This document shows, one piece after another, positions 3,274 to 26,797 of a stretch of DNA of 64,000 nt. The translations under genes were made by a program, and so were the position numbers. Numbering within the stretch: the stretch's first letter is position 1; the number at the start of each line of letters is the position of its first letter. The notes under the pieces are model-generated. The model worked only from the letters and a program-made list of their open reading frames with translations. It made no database searches and was not told the DNA's origin. Origin of the DNA: Patescibacteria group bacterium (lineage in GTDB: Bacteria; Patescibacteriota; Patescibacteriia; SG8-24; DYFX01); NCBI GenBank assembly GCA_041659045.1, contig JBAZZB010000001.1, positions 326,111 to 390,110 of the forward strand, in the 5' to 3' direction.

Positions 3274-3274
3274 A

Positions 3275-3736
3275 TCAGCAAGTGATGTCCAGAATTTCGT
3301 AGGTCGTCGTGGAGCCGTTTGGCATGACGTTGTCGAACTTCTCTCCTTTTTTGCGGCCAAGAAGCGCGGTGCCGATCGGCGACTCGTTCGAGATCTTGCC
3401 GATGGTTGGATCGGATTCTTTGGGACCAACAATGTGATACTCCTTTTCCTTCTCACCGGCTTTGCAGCGCACGTGGCAACCGACGTTTACGACTTCCGTA
3501 GAAGTGGGGGCAGAGACGACAGCGCGCGCCAAGAAACTTTCGAGCTCCTGAATGCGCCCCTCCATGAAGGCAAGCGCGTCTTTGGCATCGTGGTACTCGG
3601 CGTTCTCGGACAGGTCGCCCAAGTCCTTGGCTTTGGCGATGCGGTCCGCGATCTCAAAACGACGGACGCTTTTGAGCTCATGAAGCTCCGCGCGCATCGT
3701 CTCGAGGCCCTCTTTTGTGGTGATGTATGACTTCAT
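3275..3736 (-). CDS. greA: Transcription elongation factor GreA
   Basis: MKSYITTKEGLETMRAELHELKSV... gives a GreA N-terminal coiled coil with DLSENAEYHDAKD and a C-terminal FKBP-like domain. Length is about 153 aa. Confidence 0.85.
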   Translation of the reverse strand: MKSYITTKEGLETMRAELHELKSVRRFEIADRIAKAKDLGDLSENAEYHDAKDALAFMEGRIQELESFLARAVVSAPTSTEVVNVGCHVRCKAGEKEKEYHIVGPKESDPTIGKISNESPIGTALLGRKKGEKFDNVMPNGSTTTYEILDITC

Positions 3737-3769
3737 AAAATCCGGTCGCAAAGCGATCGTTTGTTACGC

Positions 3770-5794
3770 CTAGTATAGGCCGCTTGAAGTCGCCGCGTCA
3801 ATCGGATTTGAGGCCGCCTCCGGGCTGGCTGCCGACCCGTTTTTTGGGCGCATCCATGCCTCGATAATGTCCCTGGCGACGGGGGCTGAGGCGCGTGAGC
3901 CCTCGCCACCAGCTTCTACGAGGACGACGACGACGATTTCAGGGTCGTTATAAGGGGCAAACCCAGCAAACCAGGCGTGGGTCGGCTTATTTGAGCTCCA
4001 CTGGGCGGTACCTGTTTTACCGGCGATCTCGACGAACGAGGTTTTGAGGCCTTGGGCCGAGCCGGCCAGGACGGTCTGTCGCATGCCGTGCCGTACGACG
4101 TCGACGATGTCTTTGGAGACAACGCCTTTCACGATCGGTTCCGGCGCGTGCTTTTCGATGGTCTTGTCGGAGCGTATTTGTTTTACGACGTGTGGCCGCA
4201 CAATATCGCCGCCGTTGGCGAAGGCGGCGGTCCAGGCCGCCACCTGAAGCGGTGTCGACGTCATGTCACCTTGGCCGATCGCGACGTGGTAAGTGTCACC
4301 GATATACCAGACCTCGTCCTTCACGCGTTCTTTCCAAGCACTGTCCGGTACAAAGCCGGCCGCTTCGCTCGGAAGGTCGATGCCCAGCTTGGTACCGATG
4401 CCGAATTTGCGATACCAGGAAGCCAGGCGTTCGATTCCAAGACCTTCGATGCGATCCCAACCGCCACCAACCGCGTAGAAAAACGTGTTGACGGACTCAG
4501 CAATCGCCTTCGTAACGTTGGTCGTACCGTGGCCGCCGTTCTTCCAGTCTGGAAAGAACCACGCGCCGAAATGAATACCGCCAGTTGAGAGAACGGTCGT
4601 CGACGGCGAAACAACACCTTCGGCCAATGCGGCGGCGGCAACGATGGTTTTGATGGTCGAGCCTGGAGGAAACGCTCCGGCGACGGCGCGTGGGAAAAGC
4701 GGTTGGTTCGTATCTTGCAGCAGTGCTTGGTACTCCTTGTTTGAGATGCCGCGCGCAAAGAGGTTCGCGTCGTAGGCGGGCCAGCTGACGAGTGCCAAGA
4801 TCTCTCCGTTACGCGGATCCATGGCGACAACAGAGCCTCGTCCGAGTCCGTTTCTTGCCGCTGAATTTTTCAGAGCGGTTTCTGCTGCTGCTTGAAGCTT
4901 GGCGTCGATCGTAAGCGTGATGTCCATGCCTTGAACCGGCTCATCAGCGGCCAAAACTTTTTGTTCGCGACCAAAGGCGTCTACCTCGATCTGCTTTTTA
5001 CCGTAGGTGCCGCGCAGCTCGCGCTCGTAGAAGGCTTCGATGCCCGTTTTACCAATGGCGTCGGTTGGTAAATACCCCGAAGACTTGAGTCGCGAATACT
5101 CAGCCTCGTTGATGCGACCTTCGTAGCCGATCACGTGCGAAAGACTCATGATCGGCTCTTTGGCGCCCTCAGGTTTCAAGAGAATTTCGCGCTTTGTGCC
5201 CGCACCGAGCGCGACGCCCGTCATGCGACCGCTTTGGATATCGAGCTTGAGCGCCTGTTCGTAGTCGAGGTGCTCCTTGATCGGCACGGGTGAGGCAAGG
5301 TTCGCTGGGTAGTTGCGCAGGCTTTTTTCGACATCGACCGGCGTCAATCCAACAGCCTCTGCTAGCTGCACGATGAGCTGCTCGCGCGCTTCCGTGTCGC
5401 GCGGCACGTCTGCCGGCGTTACCGTCAATGTAAAATCCGGGACGTTGCGAACAAGAAGTGTGCCGTTGCGGTCATAGATTACGCCGCGTTCAGAAGGAAC
5501 GGCGGCGATACGCAAGCGGTTTCCCTCGGCTTGCTGTCGATACTCCGCGCCCTTTACAAGATCAAGATATCCCGCGCGAGCGCCAAGTGTGGCGAGCATG
5601 AGAAAGAAAACGATAAAAGAGATCTTCAGCTTTCGCGAGGTTAAAGAGGGGCCGATATACCCGTGATGGCCGAGGGGCTGCTCTTCAAACGGCTGACCGA
5701 TCGGTCCGCCCGACGATTCGTCAATCGTGGGAATCGCCTGATCGATCTCGCCGTGTCCGAGGCCTTCGACGTCAGGAAAAAGCGTGCGGGGCAT
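3770..5794 (-). CDS. mrdA: Penicillin-binding protein 2 (elongasome transpeptidase)
   Basis: It has an N-terminal TM segment and a PBP dimerisation domain. The transpeptidase motifs are STIK (SxxK), SVN and KTGTA. It sits directly downstream of mreBCD. The start was chosen at the internal MPRTLFPDV; the longer ORF overlaps mreD. Confidence 0.85.
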   Translation of the reverse strand: MPRTLFPDVEGLGHGEIDQAIPTIDESSGGPIGQPFEEQPLGHHGYIGPSLTSRKLKISFIVFFLMLATLGARAGYLDLVKGAEYRQQAEGNRLRIAAVPSERGVIYDRNGTLLVRNVPDFTLTVTPADVPRDTEAREQLIVQLAEAVGLTPVDVEKSLRNYPANLASPVPIKEHLDYEQALKLDIQSGRMTGVALGAGTKREILLKPEGAKEPIMSLSHVIGYEGRINEAEYSRLKSSGYLPTDAIGKTGIEAFYERELRGTYGKKQIEVDAFGREQKVLAADEPVQGMDITLTIDAKLQAAAETALKNSAARNGLGRGSVVAMDPRNGEILALVSWPAYDANLFARGISNKEYQALLQDTNQPLFPRAVAGAFPPGSTIKTIVAAAALAEGVVSPSTTVLSTGGIHFGAWFFPDWKNGGHGTTNVTKAIAESVNTFFYAVGGGWDRIEGLGIERLASWYRKFGIGTKLGIDLPSEAAGFVPDSAWKERVKDEVWYIGDTYHVAIGQGDMTSTPLQVAAWTAAFANGGDIVRPHVVKQIRSDKTIEKHAPEPIVKGVVSKDIVDVVRHGMRQTVLAGSAQGLKTSFVEIAGKTGTAQWSSNKPTHAWFAGFAPYNDPEIVVVVLVEAGGEGSRASAPVARDIIEAWMRPKNGSAASPEAASNPIDAATSSGLY

Positions 5795-8896: not shown

Positions 8897-11773
8897 TTAT
8901 AGCACTTTGAAGCGGCAGATGTCTTTGAAGTCGCAATACTTGCAGGTGTGTTCACTGGGCGTTGGCGCGAAGTCGGAATCTTTGATTTCCGTGATCTTTT
9001 TGTCGATCGACGCACGGATCTCGTCGAGGTTCTCTTCGGCTTCGACTTCCTGCAAGACATCGTCCTTGAGGAACCAAAACGCCATACGGCTTGTTTTGAC
9101 TTGATACACGTCGGCAAGCGCCAGCTGGTAGATACGCAGCTGTTCCTTCATGCCGGAATCCAGACGTTCCTTCGATTTACCCGTCTTGTAGTCGATGATG
9201 ACGACGGTGCCGTCCGGCAGCTTGTCGATGCGATCGATTTTACCTTTCAAGACGTAGCCGCCGATTTTGAGCGTGAAGGGTGCTTCGGTCATCCAAGGCG
9301 TGGGTTGCTCGGCAAGTGTTCTCGCGTGGGCGCGGCTGATTGCGTCACGTCCGGCTTGGTGGAAACGCTCTCGCTCCACCGCATCGTCGTACCACTCCCC
9401 CGTCCACTGGCTTTCGTAGATCACAAGCAGTTCGTCGAGCGACATGGGCGCCTCCGGTTTCGCTTTGTACGCCTCGATGAACGTTTCAAGAACTGAGTGA
9501 ATCAGCTTGCCGAAGTGGAGCGGACCCTTGTCGAGCGTTGGAATCTTCAGAAGATGCGCAAACTTGTATTGCAGCGGGCAATTATCAAACGCCGCTAGCT
9601 GCGAAAAGCTGAAGCTGGATGGGAGTTCAAGCACAATTGCTCGCTCGGAACCGGAAGTCGCGGTTTCCGCTTCATGAAAGCCGGATTTTTTTGGCGACGT
9701 CACGACCGAAATGACGGCCTTATTTTCTTCATCGGCAAAAACCTCGTCGATAAAGCGTGACGGTTTCTTTTTTCGCGAGCCTCCCGAGTCTTCTGCGGCG
9801 GTCAGGTAGAGACGATCCTTGGCGCGCGTGCAGGCAACGTAAAATAAACGTCGCTCTTCCTCGAGGTGTGCGTCGACGCCTTCGTTTGGAGTTTCTTTGA
9901 CGAGCGCATCGGGAAACGGAATCGGTTCGCGCCGGTTGTCGCCTGGAAATCGGCGTGAGACGAGTTGGACGACAAAAACATTCTTGAACTCAAGACCCTT
10001 CGAGGTGTGCGCCGTCATGAGTTTCACGGTGTCCGGTCCCTCCGCGAGATCAGGTGGAATACGTCCCTCCTCGCCCGACTCCAGCTCCCAATCGAGCACG
10101 CGCATAAACCCGCGCAGGGTTGGGCGCGGTTCGTCGTTCTCGTACGTTTGAATGCGGCGCACGAGCTGGTTGAGGTAGCCGATAGCTTCAAGCGTTTCGG
10201 GCGTCTCCTCTTTCAAGAGGTCTTCGTAATATCCGGTATCGACGAAGACTTCCTTCAGGAGACGAGCTGGTGTTGTTTTACGCGCTCGTTCGGCGTGTTT
10301 TTCGATCAGCGATTCAATACGTCGGAATTTTTCAACGGTCTCTGCAGAAAAACCAAGCGTTCCGGCTTCGTGGAGCGTTTCGTAGAGCGACCAGCTTTTT
10401 CGATCAGCCTCATGCGTGAGTTTGATGACATCGAGCGCGGGAATACCGAAGATCGGCCAAGAGAGCACGCGGTGCAGCGCCGGGCTCTCGTGGTAGTTAT
10501 CAAGCAGCTTGAAATAGCAGATGGCGTCTTGGATCACGGGTTTTACGTACAGACCGCGAGAAGCAACATAGAGATGCGGAATACCGCGCCGAGAGAGCGC
10601 TTCCATGAACGGTTTGAGGTGCGAATTGGCGCGCGCCAAAATTGCGAAGTTGCCCCAAGTCGCTTCAGGGTCGTTTTCCTTGATGCGTGAAATCTCTTCA
10701 GCGACGTAACGCGCTTCGTCGTCGATGTCGGCTAGGTTGGCGTGCGTAATGACGCCGCCGTTGCCTCGCTCCGCAATGAGGCGCTTCGATAAACCAAGCT
10801 TGGCTTCGAGGCGGTTCGGGTCATTGCGCTTGATGAAGCGATAGCTGACGTCGAGAATCTCTTGCTTTGAACGATAGTTGCGCGTTAAGAAGACTTGCGC
10901 GGCTTTCGGAAAGTCGTCTTTAAACGCCAAAATATTCGAGACGGAAGCGCCTCGGAATTTATAAATTGACTGGTCATCATCGCCGACGACTGTCAGGTTG
11001 CCGTCCTGTCCAGAAAGAAGCTTTACGAGTTCGTACTGGGCGACGTTCGTGTCTTGAAACTCGTCGACCAAAATGTATTTGAAACGCTTGCGGAACTCGG
11101 CAAGCACGCTGGGGCGCTCGCGGAAGAGGCGGATTGATTCGGAAATCAACGCTCCAAAATCGAGTTGCTTTCGTTCGAGCAAGAGATTCTCGTAAACTTC
11201 AAAGGCGCGCGCGACTTCAAGAACGCGTGTTTTTTCATCCGGTTCCGCTTCGAGCGCCTCCGCGTACGCGCGATACTGCGGTGGTGTAACGAGCTCGTCT
11301 TTGGCGTGGCTGAAATGATCGAGCAGATAATGGATGAAGCGCGACGGGTCGCCAAGCGGACGGTAATATTCGAGACCGAAATCCGTCAGGCGGTCGCGTA
11401 CTGAAAGCCAAGCACCCGTTTCATCGAGCAGTTTGGCGTCGGCAGCTAAGCCGATATCAATGCCGCGTTCCTTGAGGACACGCTCGCCAAAGCCGTGGAA
11501 GGTCAAAGCCCAGAGTTCGACATAGCCAATCGGCAAGAGGGCGTCGAGACGTTCTTCAAGCTCGGAAGCCGCTTTTTCGGTGAAGGTAAGCGCCAAAATC
11601 TCCCCAGGTGCCGCCCGGCCCGTGGCGATGAGCCAGGCAATGCGCTGGGCGATCACAGTCGTCTTTCCGGTGCCTGCCCCCGCCACAATCAAAAGAGGCC
11701 CCTCCACGTGCGTGACCGCGGCCTTTTGCTCCGGGTTCAAACCCTCCAAGAGTTTTTCGGGATCCATTGACAT
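8897..11773 (-). CDS. UvrD/PcrA-family SF1 helicase fused to a C-terminal PD-(D/E)XK nuclease (Cas4/AddB-type, Cys-rich)
   Basis: N-terminus LNPEQKAAVTHVEGPLLIVAGAGTGKT contains the Walker A motif, followed by the UvrD helicase motifs. The C-terminal roughly 250 aa carry GKIDRID...HTCKYCDFKDICRF, which is a RecB-family nuclease with a Cys cluster. Start at MSMDPEKLLEGL. Confidence 0.85.
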   Translation of the reverse strand: MSMDPEKLLEGLNPEQKAAVTHVEGPLLIVAGAGTGKTTVIAQRIAWLIATGRAAPGEILALTFTEKAASELEERLDALLPIGYVELWALTFHGFGERVLKERGIDIGLAADAKLLDETGAWLSVRDRLTDFGLEYYRPLGDPSRFIHYLLDHFSHAKDELVTPPQYRAYAEALEAEPDEKTRVLEVARAFEVYENLLLERKQLDFGALISESIRLFRERPSVLAEFRKRFKYILVDEFQDTNVAQYELVKLLSGQDGNLTVVGDDDQSIYKFRGASVSNILAFKDDFPKAAQVFLTRNYRSKQEILDVSYRFIKRNDPNRLEAKLGLSKRLIAERGNGGVITHANLADIDDEARYVAEEISRIKENDPEATWGNFAILARANSHLKPFMEALSRRGIPHLYVASRGLYVKPVIQDAICYFKLLDNYHESPALHRVLSWPIFGIPALDVIKLTHEADRKSWSLYETLHEAGTLGFSAETVEKFRRIESLIEKHAERARKTTPARLLKEVFVDTGYYEDLLKEETPETLEAIGYLNQLVRRIQTYENDEPRPTLRGFMRVLDWELESGEEGRIPPDLAEGPDTVKLMTAHTSKGLEFKNVFVVQLVSRRFPGDNRREPIPFPDALVKETPNEGVDAHLEEERRLFYVACTRAKDRLYLTAAEDSGGSRKKKPSRFIDEVFADEENKAVISVVTSPKKSGFHEAETATSGSERAIVLELPSSFSFSQLAAFDNCPLQYKFAHLLKIPTLDKGPLHFGKLIHSVLETFIEAYKAKPEAPMSLDELLVIYESQWTGEWYDDAVERERFHQAGRDAISRAHARTLAEQPTPWMTEAPFTLKIGGYVLKGKIDRIDKLPDGTVVIIDYKTGKSKERLDSGMKEQLRIYQLALADVYQVKTSRMAFWFLKDDVLQEVEAEENLDEIRASIDKKITEIKDSDFAPTPSEHTCKYCDFKDICRFKVL

Positions 11774-11795
11774 TGTCAGTGTTTTCAGGTATCCT
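11767..11795 (+). promoter_or_regulatory. Sigma70-like promoter TTGACA-17-TATCCT for the 11824 gene
   Basis: TTGACA at 11767-11772, a 17-nt spacer, and TATCCT at 11790-11795. The -35 element overlaps the divergent helicase start codon. Confidence 0.45.
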
Positions 11796-11823
11796 AGCAT
11801 GAATTCGGAGATCAACCTTCCGA

Positions 11824-12252
11824 ATGAGAAAGAAGAGGTTTATTGTGCCTGTTCCCGCTCCTTCCCTCGCCCACAAGAGCGTCCATGTCATCGAGTACTA
11901 CGAGCCCAACCACGAGAGCTACCTGCGGTTCATCCGCCACCGACTCGGCGACGCGCCTGTGGAGATCAAGGTCTTCGGCGACCACGAGGCGTACTTCAAC
12001 GCTGTGACGCCGGACAAGCTGCCCGACGTGCTCGTCCTCTCCAACCGCCAGAAGGGCATGACGGGCGTCGACTTGATCACCAGACTGCGCCGCGAGGGCT
12101 ACGCCGGCAAGGCGTTCATCTTCACCGGCGGCCCGCAGATCGAGCTGAGCGCCGAGATGGAGGCGGACGACGTCTTCTACAAGCCGACCGACACCAGGCG
12201 GCTGCTCGACGCGATCTACCTCGCGCTCCACGCGCCCAACGAGCCGCACTGA
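11824..12252 (+). CDS. Stand-alone CheY-like pseudo-receiver domain protein
   Basis: 142 aa. It aligns to the REC fold (conserved Thr in IFTGG and Lys in YKPTD). The acidic pocket is replaced by EYY, and the phospho-acceptor Asp is replaced (PDVLVLSN). The gene is GC3-rich. Confidence 0.55.
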   Translation: MRKKRFIVPVPAPSLAHKSVHVIEYYEPNHESYLRFIRHRLGDAPVEIKVFGDHEAYFNAVTPDKLPDVLVLSNRQKGMTGVDLITRLRREGYAGKAFIFTGGPQIELSAEMEADDVFYKPTDTRRLLDAIYLALHAPNEPH

Positions 12253-12257
12253 CGCGA

Positions 12258-12291
12258 AACCCCCCGACATACGTCGAGGGGTTATTTTTTT
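12258..12291 (+). terminator. Intrinsic terminator (hairpin plus T-run) after the pseudo-receiver gene, convergent with the SulP stop
   Basis: aaccccccgacatacgtcgaggggtt followed by ttatttttttat. Confidence 0.55.
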
Positions 12292-13933
12292 ATGAAGCCT
12301 TGTTCAAATCAGCCTTCGCGAGTTCGATCGCCTCCGCCGAAGTCTTCGTGAAGCACTGTTCTCCGCCGACTTTCTCGACCAAGCCCAGTTTGCGCAACTT
12401 TTCCACGAGGCGCGGGTGAAGCGTCGAGAAGTAGATACGTCCGCCGTTGTTGAGTACGCGGTCGATGATGATCTCTAAGGCATGTACGCCCGTTGCGTCC
12501 ATGTGCGTCACATATTTCATGCGCAAGATCAGCGTTTCGCCGCGGTTGTGGCGAATGCGGCTTTCGAATTCCGTTGCGACGCCGAAGAACAAGGGGCCCG
12601 CGACTTTATAGAGAACAATCTGCGGATACGCGCGCAACGTTTCTTGCAGGCGGTTGAACTCCTCACTGTCTGGGCTCTCGATCTCTCCGATGTTCTCGAA
12701 AATCGTGAGCTTGCTCACGCGTTGGATGAAGAGCGCGGCGGCCATGACAACGCCGATACCGACGGCAATCGTGAGGTCGGTGAAGATCGTGAGGAGGAAT
12801 GTTGTAATGAGAACAGCGGCGTCCTGCTTCGGGCTGTGCAGAAGGTGGGTAAAGTGCGGAATTTCTGCCATGCCGTAGGCGACCATCATGAGAATCGCGG
12901 CCAGCGTCGCAAGCGGAATGTAGCGCGCGAGCGGGGCGGCGAAGAGCAAGATGATAACCAAGACCAAACTGTGAACGATCGAGGATACACGCGTACGCGC
13001 GCCGTTTCTGATATTGGCGGCCGTGCGCGCGATGGCGCCCGTAGCCGGGATACCAGAGAAAAACGGCAAGAGCATATTGCCGATACCTTGAGCGATCAGC
13101 TCCTTGTTGGAATTGTGCTTTTTTCCGGTCATGCCGTCCGCCACGACGGCGGAAAGCAGCGATTCAATGGCTCCAAGCGCGGCGATCGTGAAGGCCGCAG
13201 GCAGAAGCGCGCGCGCCGTCTCCCAAGAAAACGAAAGGAGGTGCAGGCGCGGAAGACCAGTCGGGATTGAACCAATTGTCGCCGCTGGGGCCAGGTTCTT
13301 GAAGAACGCGTTCAGGATCAGGCTTACCGCGATACCGACGAACAAGGCCGCCGGAGCTGGCGGAAATTTTTTCACGCGCTTTTGCCAGAGCACGTAGGTC
13401 GCGAGCGTCGTAAGACCGATGATCACGGCGCTAAGGTTCACACCTTTGACGACGTGCTGAGCGATCATCGTGACCGTCTCCACGAAATCGTGCGGGCGGT
13501 GCTCGAAACTCAGACCGAGAAAATCTTTAATTTGGCCGAAAAAGATGATGACGCCGATGCCGGAGGTGAAGCCGACCGTCACGGGGTATGGAATGAATCG
13601 AATGATCGAACCGAATTTACAGAGACCCATGACGAGCAGGATGACGCCTGCCATGAATCCCGCGACCATTAAGCCTTCGATGCCGTGATTGTTGACGACG
13701 TTGAGCAGGATGACGACGAACGCTCCGGTCGGACCAGAGACTTGGAAACCGGAACCGGAAAGAAGACCGATCACGAGACCGGCGATAATCGAAGTGTAGA
13801 TGCCTTGTTCGGGACGCGCACCGCTCGCAACCGCGAAAGCGATGGCGAGAGGAAGCGCGATCAAACCGACGACGGTGCCTGAAATCAGGTCAAACTTAAA
13901 CGTGTCTTTGAAATACGCTCGTACACTCTGCAT
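12290..13933 (-). CDS. SulP-family anion transporter with C-terminal STAS domain
   Basis: The N-terminus FDLISGTVVGLIALPLAIAFAVASGARPEQGIYTSIIAG is the SulP signature region. It has about 11 TM helices and a C-terminal STAS domain. Its start is only about 5 bp after the stop of the upstream beta-CA-like gene. Confidence 0.85.
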   Translation of the reverse strand: MQSVRAYFKDTFKFDLISGTVVGLIALPLAIAFAVASGARPEQGIYTSIIAGLVIGLLSGSGFQVSGPTGAFVVILLNVVNNHGIEGLMVAGFMAGVILLVMGLCKFGSIIRFIPYPVTVGFTSGIGVIIFFGQIKDFLGLSFEHRPHDFVETVTMIAQHVVKGVNLSAVIIGLTTLATYVLWQKRVKKFPPAPAALFVGIAVSLILNAFFKNLAPAATIGSIPTGLPRLHLLSFSWETARALLPAAFTIAALGAIESLLSAVVADGMTGKKHNSNKELIAQGIGNMLLPFFSGIPATGAIARTAANIRNGARTRVSSIVHSLVLVIILLFAAPLARYIPLATLAAILMMVAYGMAEIPHFTHLLHSPKQDAAVLITTFLLTIFTDLTIAVGIGVVMAAALFIQRVSKLTIFENIGEIESPDSEEFNRLQETLRAYPQIVLYKVAGPLFFGVATEFESRIRHNRGETLILRMKYVTHMDATGVHALEIIIDRVLNNGGRIYFSTLHPRLVEKLRKLGLVEKVGGEQCFTKTSAEAIELAKADLNKAS

Positions 13934-13938
13934 AGATT

Positions 13939-14973
13939 TCAGTCGATGACTTCAAGTTTTCGCGTGTCCCAGTGCATGACCGTCGTGAGCGGCTTAAAGT
14001 AGCCTTCAAGATCGGGATGCGCCTGTTTAATCGTTTCAAGACCGAGTTTCGTGAGATACCGCGCGTTCATGATTGCTCCGTTGCGCTCCGTTTCGTCGAA
14101 ATAGGAAACTGAGGCGAAGAGCACCGCGCTCTCTTTTGAGATGCGCCCAGCGTCGCGGTTCGCCTTGATGATTTTGGCGGCGGTGGCGATGGATTGGTTC
14201 AACTGCGGATCGGTGTCGTTGATAATGAGCGCGTAGTTGATTTTGTGGAGCCAGTCGAAGCCTTGTCCGATCGCCAGGATGCGTTCCATGTGTTCGAGCT
14301 CGACGTGCGACTTTTCTTTGCAGCCGAGATCGCGTACGTGCTCGATGTTACCAGCCATGAGCGGAATCAAATCGTGGGCGACTTGCTGCGGCATGTCCGG
14401 ATACAAGTCTTTGATGGTTGCCATCAATTCCCCTCCGTCAATCGATTTAATGTCAGCCATGGAAATCGTTTTGCCGTTGCGGCCATGGAACACCAATGCT
14501 TCGCAGTCTGTCTCGACGCCAACCAGGATATTGTACACCTGGCGGAGTGGGTCGACGGCAAAGTAGAAATCGAGCTGTTTGACCAGCTCGGTCGAGCACG
14601 AGATGGATTTTTCCGTGTCATAGCCGTGTCCGGCGCAGCCACGATGTGGATCCCCTTTCGAGTAGTGATACGTCGCCATGCAAAGGACATGGCGTCCTTT
14701 TCCGAGCGCGTATTTACGAAGATCGTTGACGCGACTGCGGAGCGCCGGCCAACCCATATTGAAAATGCCGCCAATGTTGCGCTTGGGGCGGATCATGCCG
14801 AACGGCGTGCGTGTCATGACGGGCAAATGCACGCGGCCATCCATGCATTTGAACGCGACCATCATGGTCGGATGCTTGGCGCGATAGGCTTTGCGCGACG
14901 GTGTTTGTTGGAGGTAGAGCTCTGACTGCGCACGGTTCAATTCCAGCAGTTCAGGGATGATCTGATGAGCCAT
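13939..14973 (-). CDS. Divergent beta-carbonic-anhydrase-like protein, paralog A
   Basis: About 344 aa. Motifs KCMDGRV (C-x-D-x-R), RPKRNIGGIF (compare the beta-CA RNxGN segment) and TYHYSKGDPHRGCAGHG (H-x-x-C-x-G) have beta-CA-like spacing. Start chosen at the ATG for MAHQIIPELLELN; the listed ORF begins at a TTG. Confidence 0.55.
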   Translation of the reverse strand: MAHQIIPELLELNRAQSELYLQQTPSRKAYRAKHPTMMVAFKCMDGRVHLPVMTRTPFGMIRPKRNIGGIFNMGWPALRSRVNDLRKYALGKGRHVLCMATYHYSKGDPHRGCAGHGYDTEKSISCSTELVKQLDFYFAVDPLRQVYNILVGVETDCEALVFHGRNGKTISMADIKSIDGGELMATIKDLYPDMPQQVAHDLIPLMAGNIEHVRDLGCKEKSHVELEHMERILAIGQGFDWLHKINYALIINDTDPQLNQSIATAAKIIKANRDAGRISKESAVLFASVSYFDETERNGAIMNARYLTKLGLETIKQAHPDLEGYFKPLTTVMHWDTRKLEVID

Positions 14974-14993
14974 AGGGTGTTGAAGATTTTCCA

Positions 14994-15022
14994 AGTGTAG
15001 GCCTCCACCAAGCGAACGTCAA
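14994..15022 (-). promoter_or_regulatory. Sigma70-like promoter TTGACG-17-TACACT upstream of paralog A
   Basis: Minus strand reads TTGACGttcgcttggtggaggccTACACT. Confidence 0.4.
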
Positions 15023-15025
15023 GAT

Positions 15026-15048
15026 GAAAAAACCACCCGCGGGGGTGG
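15026..15048 (-). terminator. Intrinsic terminator after paralog B
   Basis: Minus strand reads CCACCCccgcGGGTGG followed by TTTTTTCATC, immediately after the TGA stop. Confidence 0.45.
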
Positions 15049-16086
15049 TCAGAGGTTGGGAGAAGCGATGACGTCGAGGCCGCGGGTTCGCCAGTCCATG
15101 ACGGCGGTGAGCGGCTCGAAGAAGTCCTGAAGATCGGGGTGGAACTTCGCGATCGACTCGATCCCCAGCTCGGTGAGCTTGCGGGCTCGCAGTTCGGCGA
15201 GACGGCGCTCAGGTCCGTCGTTCTCGTACGGCGCGCACGCGAAGAGCAGGGCCTTGTCGCGCGGAATGCGTCCGGCGTCACGGTTCCCCTTGATGATGCC
15301 GACGGCCTTGCCGATCGTGTCATCCATGGAGAGCTCGATATCGTCGATGACGAGCGCGAGATTGTGCGGCATCCACTCGTAGTCCTCGCCGAGAGCGACG
15401 ATGCGCTCGCGATGCTCGAGTTCTTCCGGAGGACGACCTGCCACGCGCACGTCCCGGGTATGGCGGATGTTGCCGCTCATGACCGGGACAAGATCGCGGG
15501 CGATCTCGGGGCGCATGTCGGGGTAGAGCGAACCGATGACCTCGGTGATGGTGCTCACGTCGTCCGCGAGATCCGCCATCGAGACAATCCGTCCGTCGCG
15601 CCCGTGAAAGGACAGGGTTTGGTGATCCGTCTCGACGCCGACCAAGACTGTGTAGATCTTGTGGCAGCCGAGGAAGACCGCGCGGAACTGATCCGCGAGC
15701 GCGCTTGCGCTGGCGATCGACCGACCCTTGTCGTATTCGTGACCGCGGCACCCTCGGTGGCTGTCGCCTTCCGCGTAGTGGTAGGTCACGACGAACAAGA
15801 TGTTGCGATCTTTCTCAAACGAAGCGCGTACGTAGCGCTCGACCTTCATGCCGAGTGCCGTCCAGCCAAGATCGAAGATGCCGCCGATGTTCCGGAAGGG
15901 CCGAACGATGCCGCGTGGCAGCAGAGTCAGATCCGACCAGCCGACGCGGCCGTCCATGCACTTGGTGACGGCGTAGTTGGTGGGGTGCTCGGCGTGGTGC
16001 CGATCACGATCGGCCCGCTGTTCGATGAACAGCCGGGAGTGCTGGGTGTTCAGATCCAGCACTTCTTGAACGAGCCTTTTCGTCAT
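15049..16086 (-). CDS. Divergent beta-carbonic-anhydrase-like protein, paralog B (compositionally atypical)
   Basis: About 345 aa starting at MTKRLVQEVLDLN (ATG at 16084-16086, preceded by GGCGAGG). It shares KCMDGRV, RPFRNIGGIF, TYHYAEGDSHRGCRGHEYD, LVGVETD, FHGRDG, LYPDM and NRDAGRI with paralog A. Identity is roughly 45-50% by eye. It is markedly GC3-rich. Confidence 0.55.
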   Translation of the reverse strand: MTKRLVQEVLDLNTQHSRLFIEQRADRDRHHAEHPTNYAVTKCMDGRVGWSDLTLLPRGIVRPFRNIGGIFDLGWTALGMKVERYVRASFEKDRNILFVVTYHYAEGDSHRGCRGHEYDKGRSIASASALADQFRAVFLGCHKIYTVLVGVETDHQTLSFHGRDGRIVSMADLADDVSTITEVIGSLYPDMRPEIARDLVPVMSGNIRHTRDVRVAGRPPEELEHRERIVALGEDYEWMPHNLALVIDDIELSMDDTIGKAVGIIKGNRDAGRIPRDKALLFACAPYENDGPERRLAELRARKLTELGIESIAKFHPDLQDFFEPLTAVMDWRTRGLDVIASPNL

Positions 16087-16131
16087 GCGCGAACCTCGCC
16101 TTGAGAACCCGATGGATTCGGGACGGGCGGT

Positions 16132-16160
16132 ATAATACCTCCAGAGATCGCTCGCGTCAA
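16132..16160 (-). promoter_or_regulatory. Sigma70-like promoter TTGACG-17-TATTAT upstream of paralog B
   Basis: Minus strand reads TTGACGcgagcgatctctggaggTATTAT. Confidence 0.45.
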
Positions 16161-16167
16161 TGGGTAT

Positions 16168-16190
16168 AAAAAAACGCGCAGGAAGCGCGG
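16168..16190 (-). terminator. Short hairpin plus T7 terminator or attenuator after the small membrane gene
   Basis: Minus strand reads CGCGCttcctGCGCG followed by TTTTTTT. Confidence 0.35.
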
Positions 16191-16199
16191 TGGAGACTC

Positions 16200-16541
16200 T
16201 TACCCGATCGTGGGCGGGTTCTTGATGCGATCCTGATTGAGGTCGCTGTCGGGGTTGAGGAAGGATTCTTCCCAAGTGGCACGGTCAAAGGCGGGCTTCT
16301 GGGCGCTCGCTACGCCACCTGCCTGCTCCCAGATGCGGTTGCGCTTCATGCGGGCGAAGCCGATCGCGATCATGAGTGGGATCAGCATGACGGAGGCCAT
16401 CGCGAGCCCCTCGACCACCTCGCCTCGGAAGAAGTGGTTGAGACTGTAGGCGCACATGAGGAGCGCCATGAGACCAAACGACCAGGCAAAGAGGGTGAGA
16501 TCGGACTTGCTCCACGCGTGCATCGACGAATGTGTTTTCAC
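16200..16541 (-). CDS. Small 2-TM membrane protein leading the beta-CA-like/SulP cluster
   Basis: About 113 aa. It has an AAGGAGG ribosome-binding site 5 nt before a GTG start (VKTHSSMHAWSK...) and two hydrophobic helices. Confidence 0.45.
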   Translation of the reverse strand: MKTHSSMHAWSKSDLTLFAWSFGLMALLMCAYSLNHFFRGEVVEGLAMASVMLIPLMIAIGFARMKRNRIWEQAGGVASAQKPAFDRATWEESFLNPDSDLNQDRIKNPPTIG

Positions 16542-16563
16542 GAGGGCCTCCTTGGATGGGCAT

Positions 16564-16592
16564 AGGATAGGCGGTGGAAACAGTTTTGTCAA
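16564..16592 (-). promoter_or_regulatory. Sigma70-like promoter TTGACA-17-TATCCT for the small membrane gene
   Basis: Minus strand reads TTGACAaaactgtttccaccgccTATCCT, followed by the AAGGAGG ribosome-binding site. Confidence 0.5.
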
Positions 16593-16602
16593 CGATCTGC
16601 TT

Positions 16603-16634
16603 TTCACAAAATCCCCCGCCGAGTGGCGAGGGAT
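16603..16634 (-). terminator. Intrinsic terminator at the end of the atp operon
   Basis: After the atpC stop the minus strand reads tccctcgccactcggcggggga followed by TTTTGTG. The plus strand also has a T-run after the hairpin. Confidence 0.55.
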
Positions 16635-16640
16635 TTTTTC

Positions 16641-17087
16641 TTACTGCTGTTCGATATGTGGCATGCCTCCGCGGCTGCGATGCTTGCGGACGACGCGCAG
16701 GCGCGCCAGTTCGCGGGCAAGGCCGGCGGCAGCGTCGGCGTAGCGCTCTTCGTCGTCGAACTTTTCCTTGAGAAGTTCTTCGGCGCGTGCTTTGGCTTCT
16801 TCAATCGCTTTGAGATCGAGTTCGTCTGCGCGTTCGGCGCTGTCAGCCAGAATGGCCAAGCGGTTGCCGGGGTGCATCGTGACGAATCCACCAGAGACGG
16901 CCAGGAGCATTTCAGAGCCGTCTTCGTTCACGACACGAAGCTCGCCCGCCTGGATGGGGGCGACGAGCGGCAGATGGTCGGGCAGGACGGTGATCTCGCC
17001 TTCAGTCGTCGGGATCGAGACTTGGCGAACCTTGGCCTGCACGGCGACGCGCTCGGGTGTGGTGAGTTCGAAGTCGAGGAGTTTCAT
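16641..17087 (-). CDS. atpC: F1 ATP synthase epsilon subunit
   Basis: GEITVLPDHLPLVAPIQAGELRV; 148 aa. Confidence 0.9.
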   Translation of the reverse strand: MKLLDFELTTPERVAVQAKVRQVSIPTTEGEITVLPDHLPLVAPIQAGELRVVNEDGSEMLLAVSGGFVTMHPGNRLAILADSAERADELDLKAIEEAKARAEELLKEKFDDEERYADAAAGLARELARLRVVRKHRSRGGMPHIEQQ

Positions 17088-17124
17088 AGGTATGGTTGAT
17101 CATCCCGCCTGCGCGGGATCTTCG

Positions 17125-19403
<2,279 letters not shown>

Positions 19404-19438
19404 AAGCTAAGGTAGAACTCACCCTACCCTCTCTTGAA

Positions 19439-20956
19439 TCAAGAGAGGGTTTTCTTAAATTCAGCGATCGCTTCCTTGAGCTCAGCTTCAATTTCCGGTT
19501 CGAGTGCTTTCTTTTCGCGCATCGCTTCCATCATGCTGGAGCGCGAAGCCTTGAGGTAGCGGTGGAAGCCGTCTTCCCAGGCGCGCACGGCGTCGATGGC
19601 GACGTCGTCAATCAAGCCGTTTGTCACGGCGTAGATGATTGCAGCCTGATGCTCGAACGGCATCGGCTGGTATTGCGGCTGCTTCAAGATTTCGACGGTG
19701 CGGCGTCCGCGTTCAATTTGCTTGCGCGTGGTGTCGTCGAGATCGGATGCGAACTGCGCGAAGGCCTCCAGTTCGCGGAACTGGGCGAGGTCGAGGCGCA
19801 GACGTCCGGCGACTTTCTTCATCACTTTCGTTTGCGCGGCGCCGCCGACGCGGGAAACCGACAAGCCGACGTTCACGGCCGGGCGAATGCCGCGGTAGAA
19901 CAGGTCGGATTCGAGATAGATTTGGCCGTCAGTGATCGAGATGACGTTCGTCGGAATGTAGGCCGAGACGTCACCGGCTTGCGTTTCGATGATCGGCAAT
20001 GCCGTCAGCGATCCGCCGCCATATTCTTTGTTGCGGCGGCAGGCGCGCTCGAGCAAGCGGGAGTGGAGATAGAAGACGTCGCCCGGATACGCTTCGCGGC
20101 CCGGCGGGCGGCGGAGAATCAAGGAGATTTGGCGGTAGGCCCAAGCGTGCTTGGAGAGGTCGTCATACACGACGAGCGCGTCCTTGCCTTGGTCCATGAA
20201 GTATTCGCCGATCGTGGCGCCCGCGTACGGCGCGAGATACGAAAGCGAAGCCGGGTCAGAGGCGCCGGCTACGACGATGATCGTGTACTCCATCGCTCCT
20301 GCCTCTTCGAGCTTGGCTTTGATACGCGCGATCTTCGATTCCTTCTGGCCGATCGCGACGTAAATACAAATCACGCCCGTCCCCTTTTGGTTGATGATGG
20401 TGTCGACGCCGATCGCGGTTTTACCCGTTTGGCGGTCGCCGATGATCAGTTCGCGCTGGCCGCGGCCGATCGGAACCATGGCGTCGATGGCCTTGATACC
20501 TGTCTGGAGCGGAACCGAAACCGGTTCGCGCGTGACGACGCCTGGAGCGACTTTTTCGATCGGATACGCCTTGCCGCCCTTGATGGCGCCTTTGCCATCG
20601 AGCGCGCGACCAAGCGGGTCAACGACGCGACCAATGAAAGCGTCGGACACATCGATCGACAAAATCTTGCCGGTCGAGCGCACGGTGTCGCCTTCTTTCA
20701 AATGTTTGGCGTCGCCGAGGACGATCGCGCCGACGGTTTCCTCTTCGAGGTTCAGCGCCATGCCGTAAGTCGGCTCTTTGCCGTCCGGTCCCGGGAACTC
20801 AAGCATTTCCGAAGACATCGCTTCGGTCAGGCCCGTCATGCGAACAACGCCGTCGCCGGATTCGACGATGGTACCGACTTTTTCAGCCTTGGAATCGACG
20901 GACGCGCCGGCGATCTCCTTCTTCAATGTTTCGATGATGAAATCTTTCGTGGCCAT
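19439..20956 (-). CDS. atpA: F1 ATP synthase alpha subunit
   Basis: GDRQTGKTA Walker A; 505 aa. Confidence 0.95.
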
Positions 20957-24353: not shown

Positions 24354-24866
24354 TCAGATGACGGCTTTCAATTGCCTGACCGCTTCCGGCAGGAGCGGCA
24401 CGAGAAAACCGAAGGCTTGAAGAAGCCAGATGCCGATATTCGAGGCGGAGAGCGCCTCGGCGAAGTGCGCCGAGATCGGATAACGCGCCGCGATGTAGAG
24501 CGCGCCGCCGACAACGAGCGTTCCTTCGATAAATCCGAGTACGCCGCCCAGGATCGCGTTGAACGTTTTCATGAACGGAATGACCGACACGACCTTGAAA
24601 ACCTTTTCGATCAACCAGAAGACAAGTCCGATCAAACGGTTCACCAGGATCATGATCACAAGGAACATGATCGTTCGCGAAAGGTTGATGTTGCCGAAGA
24701 AGATGCTCGAAGCGGCTTCGCCCCAGGCGTTGTAGTAGCGTCCGGCGACGAGCACGGAAAGCACCGTACCGATGACGGCGCCGAGCGCGTGGACCAATCC
24801 AAACCACAAGCCCGCCAGCACGAAGGCGAAAACGGCGAGGATGAGGAGGAGGTCTAAGATGGTCAT
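24354..24866 (-). CDS. CvpA-family membrane protein
   Basis: 170 aa with 4 TM helices. The N-terminus MTILDLLLILAVFAFVLAGLWFG resembles CvpA. Confidence 0.55.
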   Translation of the reverse strand: MTILDLLLILAVFAFVLAGLWFGLVHALGAVIGTVLSVLVAGRYYNAWGEAASSIFFGNINLSRTIMFLVIMILVNRLIGLVFWLIEKVFKVVSVIPFMKTFNAILGGVLGFIEGTLVVGGALYIAARYPISAHFAEALSASNIGIWLLQAFGFLVPLLPEAVRQLKAVI

Positions 24867-26797
24867 GACTTCTTTTTACCGTGCGCCGCTTTCTTGTAGG
24901 CGTTGTGCAGGTTCTTGATATCCTCCGATTCCAGTGTTTCGGGGAGCTTGAAACCGGCTTCTGCCAACGCGTCGCGGAAACCAGCGGGCGTGGCGAACTT
25001 TCCGTCTTTTTTCTTGCCTGCGGTTTTGAGCGCCTCGACAATTGCGGGCATGGCCTCCGGATGCAACGGGTTTTCTTTAGGATCGATCAGGTTTTTTACC
25101 GTCTCGGCTTTTGCTGCAGTCGGCACTTCCTGTGCTGTCGCGGCTGGTGCCTTCATGAGGTTCTTCAGCATTTCTACGCGCGCGGCATCATCCAACACGA
25201 CGCGTTTGCTGCCGCTCTCGACGACCGGAGCGTTCATCGGAGCCGTATCGGCTTTTTCCGCCTGAACCTTCGCGCCCAAGGCCTCCTGCAATCCGGGGAT
25301 CTTGCGCGTCGGCGTTTTTGTTCCAGGGAGCTTCTCTCCGGGCGCGCCAAATTGAATCGGGATCGGTGGCTTTTCACCAACGACGATGCCTCCTTTTGAA
25401 GCGATCGCTTCCCAGGCTGCGTTACGAGCGTTCTCGATCTCGTCGTTCGACATGCGGCTGAGCGTGTCCGCTGTCTCAAATCCGTTTTCTTGAAGGAAGT
25501 CTTTTACCTCAGCGTCCGTGCGCGCTTGGCCCAGCGTCTTAAGTTGCGACTCGGCCTCGCTCGTCAGGCGTTTCCAATCGGGCGCTTCGGAGACGATCAT
25601 GGCGTCGCTCACGTCCTTATTCTTCTTCATGTCTGGCGTAAGCAAAATCGGATTCTCAGGCGTCCCCTCGGGTGCCGGAGCGTCGCCTCGCTTCAGCCGT
25701 TCGCGGCGCTTTTTCTGCTCAGCCTTTTCGTTGTTCTCGGCGTTCAGTTCGGCTACGCCACGATCAATCGCCTCTTGCACGCCGGCTTCTGAAGCCTCGG
25801 CTTCCAAAGTCTGGTTCGCTTTCCGCATCTGCTCACCGGGCGAAGGCTGTTCCGCGCCGATCCACTCGACCACAATACCGCCGACCGCGGCGATTTCATC
25901 CTTGATATCCTGGCGGCGCGCGTCGACTTCCGCATCCGTAAGTTGCGCGAGTTCTTCGGCGGGCAGCAATTTTTCTTTCACGATAAACGCACGAAGTTCC
26001 GCCGTGGTTTTCGCGGCTTCGAGATCCTTCAAGCCCTTTTCGGCAAGTTTCGAATTTTTCTCCCAATCCGGAACGAGACGCGGTTCTTCGGGTGCGAGAG
26101 GAGGTTTGCCGACAGACTTCAAATCGGGAGCCGGCTTCGGCTTCTTGATGACAAACGGTCCTTCGAGCGTTTCAATTTGGCCTCCGTCGAGCACGCGCAA
26201 GACCACGCCGCTCGGAAATTTACGGAGCGAGGTGCCGTCGGCATACTCAACGCGAATCTGACCGAGGCGTTCGTCGAACTGCACGTCGCCGATTTGGCCG
26301 TGCTCGTCGACCTGGCCAATTTTTTCCTTATACGTAAAAAGTTCCTCCACCATTTTTTGCGCCGACGCGTTGCCCTTGAGCTTCTCGAAGAGCACCGCGG
26401 CTTCGTGCTTCGCTTCAGCGCGCTTCTCGACATTCTCGTCGCGTACCACCATCTTGCCGCTTTCGGTGGTGCTCACCACTTCTTGCGCCGCACTTTGGTA
26501 GCCCGCTTTGAGTGCCGCGAGCTGGTCATCAAGTTTTTTGATCTCTGCTTCATTCATGACCCAGTTCGACGCGCGACCAAAAGCTGCCTTGGTTCTGCTC
26601 CACCAGGACTCTGTCGTTTGTGTGAATTCCGTCGCCGCTTCTTCAACCTTGGCGTCTGTCTCTTTCTTGATCGGTTCCAAGGCTTCCGATTTGGAACCAA
26701 TCTTCTCGCGACCCTTCGCGAACATGTCGCTCTCGGCTTCAGAGAGCGACTTCTTCTCAACTTCCTGCGATGCGTTCTGTTCGGCTGGGAGTGCCAT
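24863..26797 (-). CDS. Large Ala/Glu/Lys-rich predicted coiled-coil protein with an internal roughly 50-aa repeat; hypothetical
   Basis: 644 aa, low complexity, no enzymatic motif. It has two related segments ending in IAAVGGIVVEWIG and IASKGGIVVGEKP. Confidence 0.6.
   Translation of the reverse strand: MALPAEQNASQEVEKKSLSEAESDMFAKGREKIGSKSEALEPIKKETDAKVEEAATEFTQTTESWWSRTKAAFGRASNWVMNEAEIKKLDDQLAALKAGYQSAAQEVVSTTESGKMVVRDENVEKRAEAKHEAAVLFEKLKGNASAQKMVEELFTYKEKIGQVDEHGQIGDVQFDERLGQIRVEYADGTSLRKFPSGVVLRVLDGGQIETLEGPFVIKKPKPAPDLKSVGKPPLAPEEPRLVPDWEKNSKLAEKGLKDLEAAKTTAELRAFIVKEKLLPAEELAQLTDAEVDARRQDIKDEIAAVGGIVVEWIGAEQPSPGEQMRKANQTLEAEASEAGVQEAIDRGVAELNAENNEKAEQKKRRERLKRGDAPAPEGTPENPILLTPDMKKNKDVSDAMIVSEAPDWKRLTSEAESQLKTLGQARTDAEVKDFLQENGFETADTLSRMSNDEIENARNAAWEAIASKGGIVVGEKPPIPIQFGAPGEKLPGTKTPTRKIPGLQEALGAKVQAEKADTAPMNAPVVESGSKRVVLDDAARVEMLKNLMKAPAATAQEVPTAAKAETVKNLIDPKENPLHPEAMPAIVEALKTAGKKKDGKFATPAGFRDALAEAGFKLPETLESEDIKNLHNAYKKAAHGKKKS

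Follow-up and report, generated by a model that had tools for sequence, protein, structure and literature searches.

Tandem CsoSCA2-type carbonic anhydrase paralogs adjoining a SulP/STAS transporter gene behind the ATP synthase operon of a Patescibacteria bacterium

Introduction

Non-carboxysomal homologs of the carboxysomal carbonic anhydrase CsoSCA were named CsoSCA2 in 2022 by Sutter, Kerfeld, Scott and co-authors (PMC9164163). The CsoSCA2 variant is compact in nature; it contains a two-helix N-terminus of about 40 residues, shortened loops, one active and one defunct domain, and all the catalytic residues. It was placed apart from the carboxysomal clade and was reported in Moran-, Magasanik-, Uhr-, Falkow-, Pace- and Staskawiczbacteria (PMC9164163). 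The only later mention that we found, in a 2025 PNAS paper, used CsoSCA2 merely as an outgroup. Here, we analyzed two adjacent genes of this type, encoding paralogs A and B, together with the SulP/STAS transporter gene that follows them. They are located in a 64,000-nucleotide stretch of DNA (the window) from a Patescibacteria group bacterium (GenBank assembly GCA_041659045.1, contig JBAZZB010000001.1, positions 326,111–390,110); all positions below are those of the window.

BicA is a SulP bicarbonate transporter. In addition, one SulP clade is juxtaposed or fused to canonical β-class carbonic anhydrase (β-CA) genes and has been read as a bicarbonate transport unit (PMC6458275). The original prediction for the window, made from its sequence without database searches, proposed a related bicarbonate/CO2 uptake-and-hydration unit consisting of two divergent β-CA-like proteins and the SulP transporter. 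Our analysis specified the β-CA-like part as CsoSCA type and left the transporter part less certain.

Results

Paralogs A and B are members of the CsoSCA2 family

Four genes are arranged on the minus strand of positions 12290–16607, in the order of membrane-protein open reading frame (ORF), paralog A, paralog B and SulP. The latter three are as follows.

15049–16086, minus strand: paralog A, 345 residues, ATG start, GAGG 8 nt upstream
13939–14973, minus strand: paralog B, 344 residues from ATG
12290–13933, minus strand: SulP transporter with C-terminal STAS domain, 547 residues, PF00916 and PF01740

Both carbonic anhydrase-like proteins are labelled 'hypothetical protein' in GenBank (MFA5853818.1 for A and MFA5853817.1 for B), and the transporter is labelled 'sulfate permease'. 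The frame of paralog B is open up to a TTG at 14994, which overlaps a −10-like hexamer; the public gene calls start the protein at the ATG. A and B share 45% identity across 344 residues (E = 4e-109), far above chance. The motifs from which two paralogs of roughly 345 residues had been recognized, KCMDGRV, RPxRNIGGIF, TYHYxxGDxHRGCxGH, LVGVETD, FHGRxG, LYPDM and NRDAGRI, are indeed all present in both proteins.

Both proteins pass the cut-off (21.5 bits) of PF20686, the CsoSCA catalytic domain, with scores of 38.8 bits for B and 28.9 bits for A. PF00484, the canonical β-CA model, gave no match to A or B at E ≤ 1, ruling out canonical β-CA membership. With TIGR02701, the equivalog model of carboxysomal CsoSCA, the paralogs scored 33.7 and 24.2 bits, compared to a cut-off of 241. 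The significant sequence matches in the PDB are CsoSCA entries only (8thm, 2fgy, 9g4t and 9sk*), with E values of ∼1e-8 to 3e-9; the best ones are 8thm and 2fgy for B (E = 3e-9). Some members of the family are named 'carboxysome shell carbonic anhydrase domain-containing protein' by NCBI. A and B are thus CsoSCA2-type members. The protein family itself is not new, because it matches PF20686, carries these NCBI names and was already named, with candidate-phyla genomes, in the 2022 review (PMC9164163); the earlier suggestion of a possibly undescribed subtype has to be dropped.

In a genome scan, at least 584 species genomes turned out to carry csoSCA2 relatives; a metagenome scan for further close relatives added four loci only. 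The gene-neighbourhood counts given below refer to 79 species-level csoSCA2 loci; individual loci are denoted by L numbers. Orthologs of paralog A, 58–79% identical, are present in L002, L003, L085, L091 and L092. In a neighbour-joining tree, computed without support values, A and B group together in a small clade, separate from most of the family, that comprises A-type and B-type sub-lineages. Tandem csoSCA2 pairs also arose elsewhere (L012, L014, L026, L035 and L084).

Predicted fold and active site

The AlphaFold2 model of paralog B, built on a 30-sequence alignment, has a pLDDT of 91.9 and a pTM of 0.89. It contains two helices (residues 2–22 and 24–33), followed by two α/β domains. In a Foldseek search, CsoSCA structures matched the full length of the model (8thm, E = 3e-18 and TM-score 0.80; 2fgy, TM-score 0.76; and 9g4t). 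The two-repeat β-CA of Porphyridium (1ddz) ranked next, followed by single-domain canonical β-CAs; the latter (3e2a, 2w3n, 1i6o and others) matched one domain with probabilities of 0.9–0.99 (∼0.98). Placement in the β-CA superfamily, as had been proposed from motifs, is therefore borne out by the predicted fold. The paralogs had also been described, correctly, as about 130 residues longer than canonical β-CAs; since the model superposes on CsoSCA over the full length, then on 1ddz and then on single-domain β-CAs, the extra residues are modelled as a second, zinc-less β-CA-like domain, as in CsoSCA.

The active-site residues of CsoSCA are C173, D175, R177, H242, C253, H397 and E399 in Halothiobacillus neapolitanus numbering (PMC9164163). 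In the HMMER alignment to 2fgy/8thm, KCMDGRV falls on C173-A-D175-G-R177, the His of TYHY on H242, the Cys of RGC on C253, and LEHxE on H397/E399. The equivalents in paralog B are C43, D45, R47, H103, C113, H228 and E230, and both A and B have all seven. No variation occurs at these positions in the 30-sequence alignment, which includes the Cys/Asp/Arg/His/Cys set whose conservation had been proposed as a check, and all seven are kept in 92 of the 93 CsoSCA2 sequences from the fetched loci. The sole exception, an E230-to-Q change, occurs in a highly divergent second copy (L026:7080–8201) beside a normal one; judged from its sequence, this paralog may be altered or lack catalytic activity. L014:1083–2189 is likewise a highly divergent second csoSCA2 copy beside a normal one.

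The zinc-ligand spacing of β-CAs had been read from the sequence earlier, and both C-x-D-x-R and H-x-x-C are literally present. The ligand His assumed in that reading, H110 of HRGC, is conserved in 74 of the 93 sequences only, whereas H103 of TYHY is invariant (93/93). The H103...C113 spacing is 10 residues, as in CsoSCA H242...C253, and differs from the canonical C-x-D-x-R ... H-x-x-C arrangement. The alignment thus assigns the zinc-ligand layout to the CsoSCA type, not to the canonical H-x-x-C type, with C43, H103 and C113 as the predicted ligands. Direct reading of the sequences revealed no hydrophobic stretch in the N-termini of A and B, so both proteins are probably cytoplasmic.

Paralog B is paired with a SulP transporter

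The TGA of paralog B (13941–13939) is separated from the ATG of SulP (13933) by a 5-nt spacer, AATCT, in agreement with the 5 bp noted originally. No Shine-Dalgarno sequence for SulP is visible in the spacer or in the 3′ end of paralog B. The transporter matches PF00916 with 294 bits (E = 2e-87) and the STAS model PF01740 with 60 bits (E = 2e-16), and it passes TIGR00815 with 387.9 bits (cut-off 380.45). Its scores are below the cut-offs of both substrate-related models, 508.4 bits compared to 614 for DauA (NF008660) and 305.9 bits compared to 880 for BicA (NF050096). Among PDB entries, BicA (6ki1, 182 bits) is the top match and SLC26Dg (5da0, 177 bits) follows. GC and GC3 content of paralog B and SulP, examined for recent horizontal transfer, are inside the spread of the neighbouring genes.

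A SulP-type gene is located within 6 kb of csoSCA2 in 11 of the 79 loci. The closest relative (L001) has the same CA-CA-SulP order as the window. Among the close relatives of B (72–96% identity), SulP directly follows the B-type paralog in L001, L083 and L085. L086 has entirely different surroundings; here, a single B-like CsoSCA2 (42% identity) is followed after 3 bp by a 69%-identical SulP. In the Nitrosomonas loci, a STAS-less PF00916 protein (∼450 residues) is encoded ∼0.8 kb downstream of csoSCA2. A SulP-type gene lies immediately downstream in L038 (Nitrosomonadales), immediately upstream in Nitrospira L071 and L077, and farther off in L027 and L052. The 11 loci represent roughly six independent events with different SulP subfamilies. 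These observations indicated that csoSCA2-sulP is a real and recurring two-gene association, facultative rather than defining. The linkage originally supposed is therefore confirmed in L001, L083, L085 and L086; it is not a family trait, being absent even from the close relatives L081/L082 and L092.

SulP genes related to that of the window also occur apart from csoSCA2. One of them, in the Gracilibacteria metagenome-assembled genome (MAG) L090, is 53% identical and lies beside a 1387-residue Cas12a-like gene (REC1, RuvC_1 and Cpf1 PI-like) and a Cas4 gene (L090:6910–11638).

The ATP synthase operon, DAB and complex-I-like modules are recurrent neighbours

Compared to SulP, the ATP synthase operon is the more conserved neighbour of the pair. 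The two features on the upstream side of paralog A are as follows.

16641–17087, minus strand: atpC, the final gene of the F1Fo ATP synthase operon, PF02823 and PF00401; directly upstream of the cluster
16200–16541, minus strand: 113-residue membrane protein, GTG start at 16541, AAGGAGG ribosome-binding site

The atpD, atpG and atpA genes precede atpC (16641–20956). In 14 of the 79 loci (L002–L005, L010, L011, L016, L021, L023, L030, L035, L045, L058 and L078), mostly from candidate-phyla bacteria of several lineages, csoSCA2 is located directly 3′ of atpC on the same strand; the same order was observed in L083, L085 and L091. In L093 (769–4759, JGI contig Ga0209542_10058633), csoSCA2 (2283–3341; 41% identity to paralog B) is inserted between atpA (769–2277) and atpG (3357–4262), with gaps of 5 and 15 bp.

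The small membrane protein heads the cluster and has two transmembrane-like segments, as had been noted; the hydrophobic segments are residues 15–34 and 42–64. It has no Pfam match. The protein is conserved upstream of A-type csoSCA2 in four other contigs (L002, L003, L083 and L085; 28–54% identity) and is missing in L091. Its conserved motifs are an N-terminal W-KSD and a C-terminal LNPEHP..RI.NPP.IG.

DAB is an inorganic-carbon pump. DabA and antiporter-like subunits are encoded within 6 kb of csoSCA2 in 22 of the 79 loci. Seventeen of these, all from Nitrosomonadaceae, have a tight operon in which dabA and three PF00361 genes precede csoSCA2 as the last gene, sometimes followed by a P-II-like gene or a STAS-less SulP. 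One example is L006:13–7029 of Nitrosomonas oligotropha Nm75; the arrangement differs from the canonical DAB layout of two genes. In the five further loci, dabA and dabB are nearby on the opposite strand. A third kind of neighbourhood is found in the Minisyncoccota MAG L003 (5998–12704), which carries an A-type ortholog: csoSCA2 is followed by NuoB-like PF01058, PF00361, NuoH-like PF00146, weak PF00420-like and PF00361 genes. NuoB-, NuoL- and NuoH-like genes also follow csoSCA2 in L002, L017, L021, L029, L041 and L050. By its domain matches, this set is a complex-I/Mrp-like membrane module of candidate-phyla bacteria. Since the recurrent neighbours are all cation-coupled membrane machines, and one of them, DAB, pumps inorganic carbon, gene order supports an inorganic-carbon or proton-related role of the csoSCA2 family. 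Literature searches on CsoSCA with DabA and Nitrosomonas, on carbonic anhydrases in Patescibacteria and on carbonic anhydrases in atp operons returned nothing relevant.

Transcription signals and surrounding genes

The following candidate signals, each a consensus match only, were located in the cluster.

16175–16189, minus strand: terminator-like hairpin and T-run after the membrane-protein gene, CGCGCTTCCTGCGCG then TTTTTTT
16132–16160, minus strand: sigma-70-like promoter upstream of paralog A, TTGACG-17-TATTAT, 10/12 matches, intergenic
15031–15050, minus strand: terminator-like hairpin and T-run after paralog A, GACCACCCCCGCGGGTGGTT then TTTTCATCTT, 8-pair stem
14994–15022, minus strand: sigma-70-like promoter upstream of paralog B, TTGACG-17-TACACT, 9/12 matches

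The total number of promoter and terminator matches is not above the shuffled expectation; only their placement in three intergenic gaps is suggestive. Because such matches sit in the gaps after the membrane-protein gene and after A, they suggest three transcription units: the membrane protein, A, and B with SulP. Both paralogs had been regarded as translationally coupled to the transporter. This probably holds for B, which abuts SulP; A and the membrane-protein gene appear to be transcribed separately.

Within 10 kb, the locus is surrounded by atp genes, SulP, a receiver-domain gene, a UvrD-like helicase gene, and genes for DciA, MreB/C and PBP2. We considered the receiver gene (11824–12252) as a part of the module; it is probably outside, because it stays with the helicase side in L092 and L081, where SulP is absent. 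Positions 8897–11815 encode a 972-residue UvrD-type helicase fused to a C-terminal PD-(D/E)XK/Cas4-like nuclease, followed by DciA, MreB, MreC and PBP2; this helicase-DciA-MreB-MreC-PBP2 block is syntenic in L081, L083 and L085. Elsewhere in the window, two long minus-strand ORFs, 24863–26797 (644 residues) and 61781–63922 (713 residues), have no Pfam match at E ≤ 0.001. Neither tRNA (ARAGORN) nor any Rfam family at the gathering threshold was detected in the whole 64-kb window.

Discussion

Our observations are best explained if A and B are two cytoplasmic, zinc-dependent carbonic anhydrases of CsoSCA2 type, compact non-carboxysomal relatives of CsoSCA. Each would consist of two short N-terminal helices, a catalytic β-CA domain and a zinc-less β-CA-like domain; zinc would be held by C43, H103 and C113, assisted by the D45-R47 dyad, with H228 and E230 contributed by the second domain. 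Based on the conserved sequence and the modelled fold, A and B are very probably functional enzymes of this family, which would catalyze CO2 + H2O = HCO3− + H+ and keep cytoplasmic CO2 and HCO3− equilibrated. Paralog B would be co-transcribed, and probably translationally coupled, with SulP/STAS. We infer the substrate and the direction of transport, as we do the enzymatic activity and the physiological purpose; SulP would carry HCO3− across the membrane, bicarbonate being its most likely substrate. That SulP transports bicarbonate together with A and B is a tentative proposal, plausible and slightly short of balanced. No carboxysome shell, CsoS2 or RuBisCO genes are located within 10 kb, and no cso or cbb genes are present among the scanned ORFs of the window; because the host is a Patescibacteria bacterium without carboxysome or Calvin-cycle genes nearby, the unit should not be a CO2-concentrating mechanism. 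It may instead serve bicarbonate supply, cytoplasmic pH buffering or both, with a probable link to the adjacent ATP synthase within this scheme. The persistent adjacency to the atp operon hints at such an ATPase-driven proton link; taken by itself, the ATPase-linked role is rather doubtful. The explanation as a whole, a cytoplasmic carbonic anhydrase pair with a facultative bicarbonate transporter and neither carboxysome nor CO2-concentrating system, is held with moderate confidence.

Several observations weigh against this explanation, mostly against its transporter part. The transporter scores closer to the C4-dicarboxylate transporter DauA than to BicA (508 and 306 bits, both below cut-off), so that the uptake-and-hydration unit of the original prediction keeps its carbonic anhydrase component, now of CsoSCA type, and loses certainty on the SulP substrate. 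The PDB matches do not separate the candidate substrates either, as BicA and SLC26Dg differ by 182 to 177 bits only. The tandem pair is kept without SulP in L081/L082 and L092 (72–76% identity), and the order in L092 is A, B, receiver, helicase, i.e. that of the window minus SulP; the SulPs of L087, L089 and L090 (53–65% identity) stand alone with no carbonic anhydrase nearby. Among the genes of the 64-kb window, none was identified as encoding an enzyme that consumes bicarbonate or CO2. The SulP clade classically tied to β-CA lacks STAS (PMC6458275), whereas the SulP of the window carries it; pairing of CsoSCA2 with a STAS-bearing SulP would thus be a different flavour of the known theme. The CsoSCA2 family was remarked to be unstudied, without any activity assay (PMC9164163).

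The same observations would also fit another arrangement, in which the pair is a stand-alone housekeeping cytoplasmic carbonic anhydrase, like E. coli Can, and SulP transports sulfate or dicarboxylates, has no relation to the pair and sits by chance in a variable slot between it and the receiver and helicase genes. SulP is missing from exactly that slot in L092, a 58%-identical SulP directly follows atpC without any carbonic anhydrase in Moranbacteria L088, DauA is the best curated model, and most of the 79 loci have no SulP-type gene within 6 kb. Against it, the B-SulP spacer of 5 nt lacks a ribosome-binding site, the CsoSCA2-SulP pair is kept in the different neighbourhood of L086, and csoSCA2 was juxtaposed with different SulP subfamilies at least four times independently; by our own estimate, with no computed control, a gene of one to three copies should occur in a 12-kb neighbourhood in ∼1% of cases, and 11 of 79 clearly exceeds this. 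We regard this arrangement as possible, at distinctly lower probability than the preferred explanation. Less likely again is that CsoSCA2 is an accessory subunit of cation-coupled membrane machines, here of the F1Fo ATPase with SulP and the small membrane protein, for ATPase-linked pH/bicarbonate homeostasis or energy-coupled CO2 hydration, and does not act as a free enzyme. The atpC-csoSCA2 order in several lineages of the Candidate Phyla Radiation (CPR), the atpA-csoSCA2-atpG order in L093, the NuoB-, NuoL- and NuoH-like genes in L003 and six other loci, the dabA operons of Nitrosomonadaceae and the small membrane protein conserved beside A-type copies would all be accounted for. All of this is gene order, however; A and B have promoter-like sites of their own, a terminator-like hairpin separates them from atpC, among CPR loci whose flanks are long enough, about half show no atp linkage, and no supporting literature was found. 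Carboxysomal CsoSCA is, moreover, active by itself (PMC9164163).

Two further alternatives concern the enzymes themselves. CS2 and COS hydrolases are β-CA-fold enzymes, and the fold predicted here is that of a β-CA; the original prediction accordingly offered hydrolysis of CS2 or COS instead of CO2, with SulP carrying a related anion. Such hydrolases are absent both from the PDB sequence matches (E ≤ 10) and from the top 50 Foldseek matches, so neither search gave a similarity signal, whereas the closest relatives by sequence and by structure are bona fide CsoSCA carbonic anhydrases and the complete catalytic set is conserved. This alternative is very improbable. Even less credible is that the paralogs are remnants of a degraded carboxysome locus. 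Their match to the carboxysomal Pfam model PF20686 could be read in this way, but there are no shell, CsoS2, RuBisCO or other cso/cbb genes in the ranges scanned, the TIGR02701 scores (34 and 24 bits compared to 241) are low and the long N-terminal domain is lacking. The strong conservation seen in at least 584 species genomes points to purifying selection, and the CsoSCA2 variant falls outside the carboxysomal clade (PMC9164163).

Returning to the cytoplasmic carbonic anhydrase pair with a facultative bicarbonate transporter, this CsoSCA2 locus and its relatives provide the first concrete gene-context clues to the role of the family outside autotrophs: the operonic SulP pairing, the location of csoSCA2 adjoining or within the ATP synthase operon of candidate phyla, and its terminal position in DabA/antiporter-like operons of ammonia oxidisers. 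The new leads are these gene-context patterns (SulP, atp operon, DAB and complex-I-like modules), and the tandem and SulP-linked arrangement is unusual. Should these clues be confirmed, they would reveal the ways in which minimal-genome fermenters deal with CO2, bicarbonate and pH, and compact, carboxysome-independent CsoSCA-type enzymes would be gained for study. One may go further and speculate, with little confidence, that csoSCA2 of Patescibacteria is an accessory gene of the F1Fo operon. The A/B duplication of the window might then form a hetero-oligomer, with A served by the small membrane partner and B by a recruited SulP bicarbonate carrier, for ATPase-linked bicarbonate/pH homeostasis in fermentative non-autotrophs. 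Such a system would be a prokaryotic counterpart of the proton-pump, carbonic anhydrase and bicarbonate-transporter arrangement of animals. Its parallels would be the dabA/antiporter-like and NuoB/L/H-like gene sets next to CsoSCA2 in other loci.

Compared to carboxysomal CsoSCA (2FGY and 8THM), the paralogs share the fold (TM-scores 0.76–0.80), the zinc ligands and the Asp-Arg dyad. Different from it, they are 344 and 345 residues in length instead of ∼460–540, share 17–21% identity with it, and lack the ∼144-residue N-terminal domain and the RuBisCO-binding peptide; their loops are shorter, their TIGR02701 scores are far below the cut-off, and they have no cso or cbb neighbours. The DAB (DabA/DabB) pumps are linked to the family through other CsoSCA2 genes, which end operons of dabA and PF00361 genes; no dabA or PF00361 gene is near the locus of the window. 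Like the canonical β-CAs beside or fused to a STAS-less SulP (Rv3273 type; can2-sulP of Acidithiobacillus), the locus has a β-class carbonic anhydrase gene immediately adjoining a SulP-family transporter gene. Here, the carbonic anhydrase is of CsoSCA2 type, not PF00484, and SulP includes a STAS domain, with DauA as its nearest model by score. With BicA of cyanobacteria (6KI1) and DauA/YchM of E. coli, the transporter shares family and domain layout, BicA being the top PDB match and DauA the top curated model; its scores lie below both equivalog cut-offs.

The closest described system is CsoSCA2 itself (PMC9164163), which the paralogs resemble in size (∼345 residues), in the two-helix N-terminus, in the active and defunct β-CA domains, in the seven active-site residues and in the location outside carboxysome loci. 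The review does not mention SulP, nor does it discuss tandem copies, an atp linkage or a membrane partner. To its description, the locus of the window adds one copy that appears operonic with SulP/STAS, two tandem, 45%-identical copies that form a small clade of their own, a position behind the atp operon, and a small, conserved membrane protein encoded ahead of the A-type copy.

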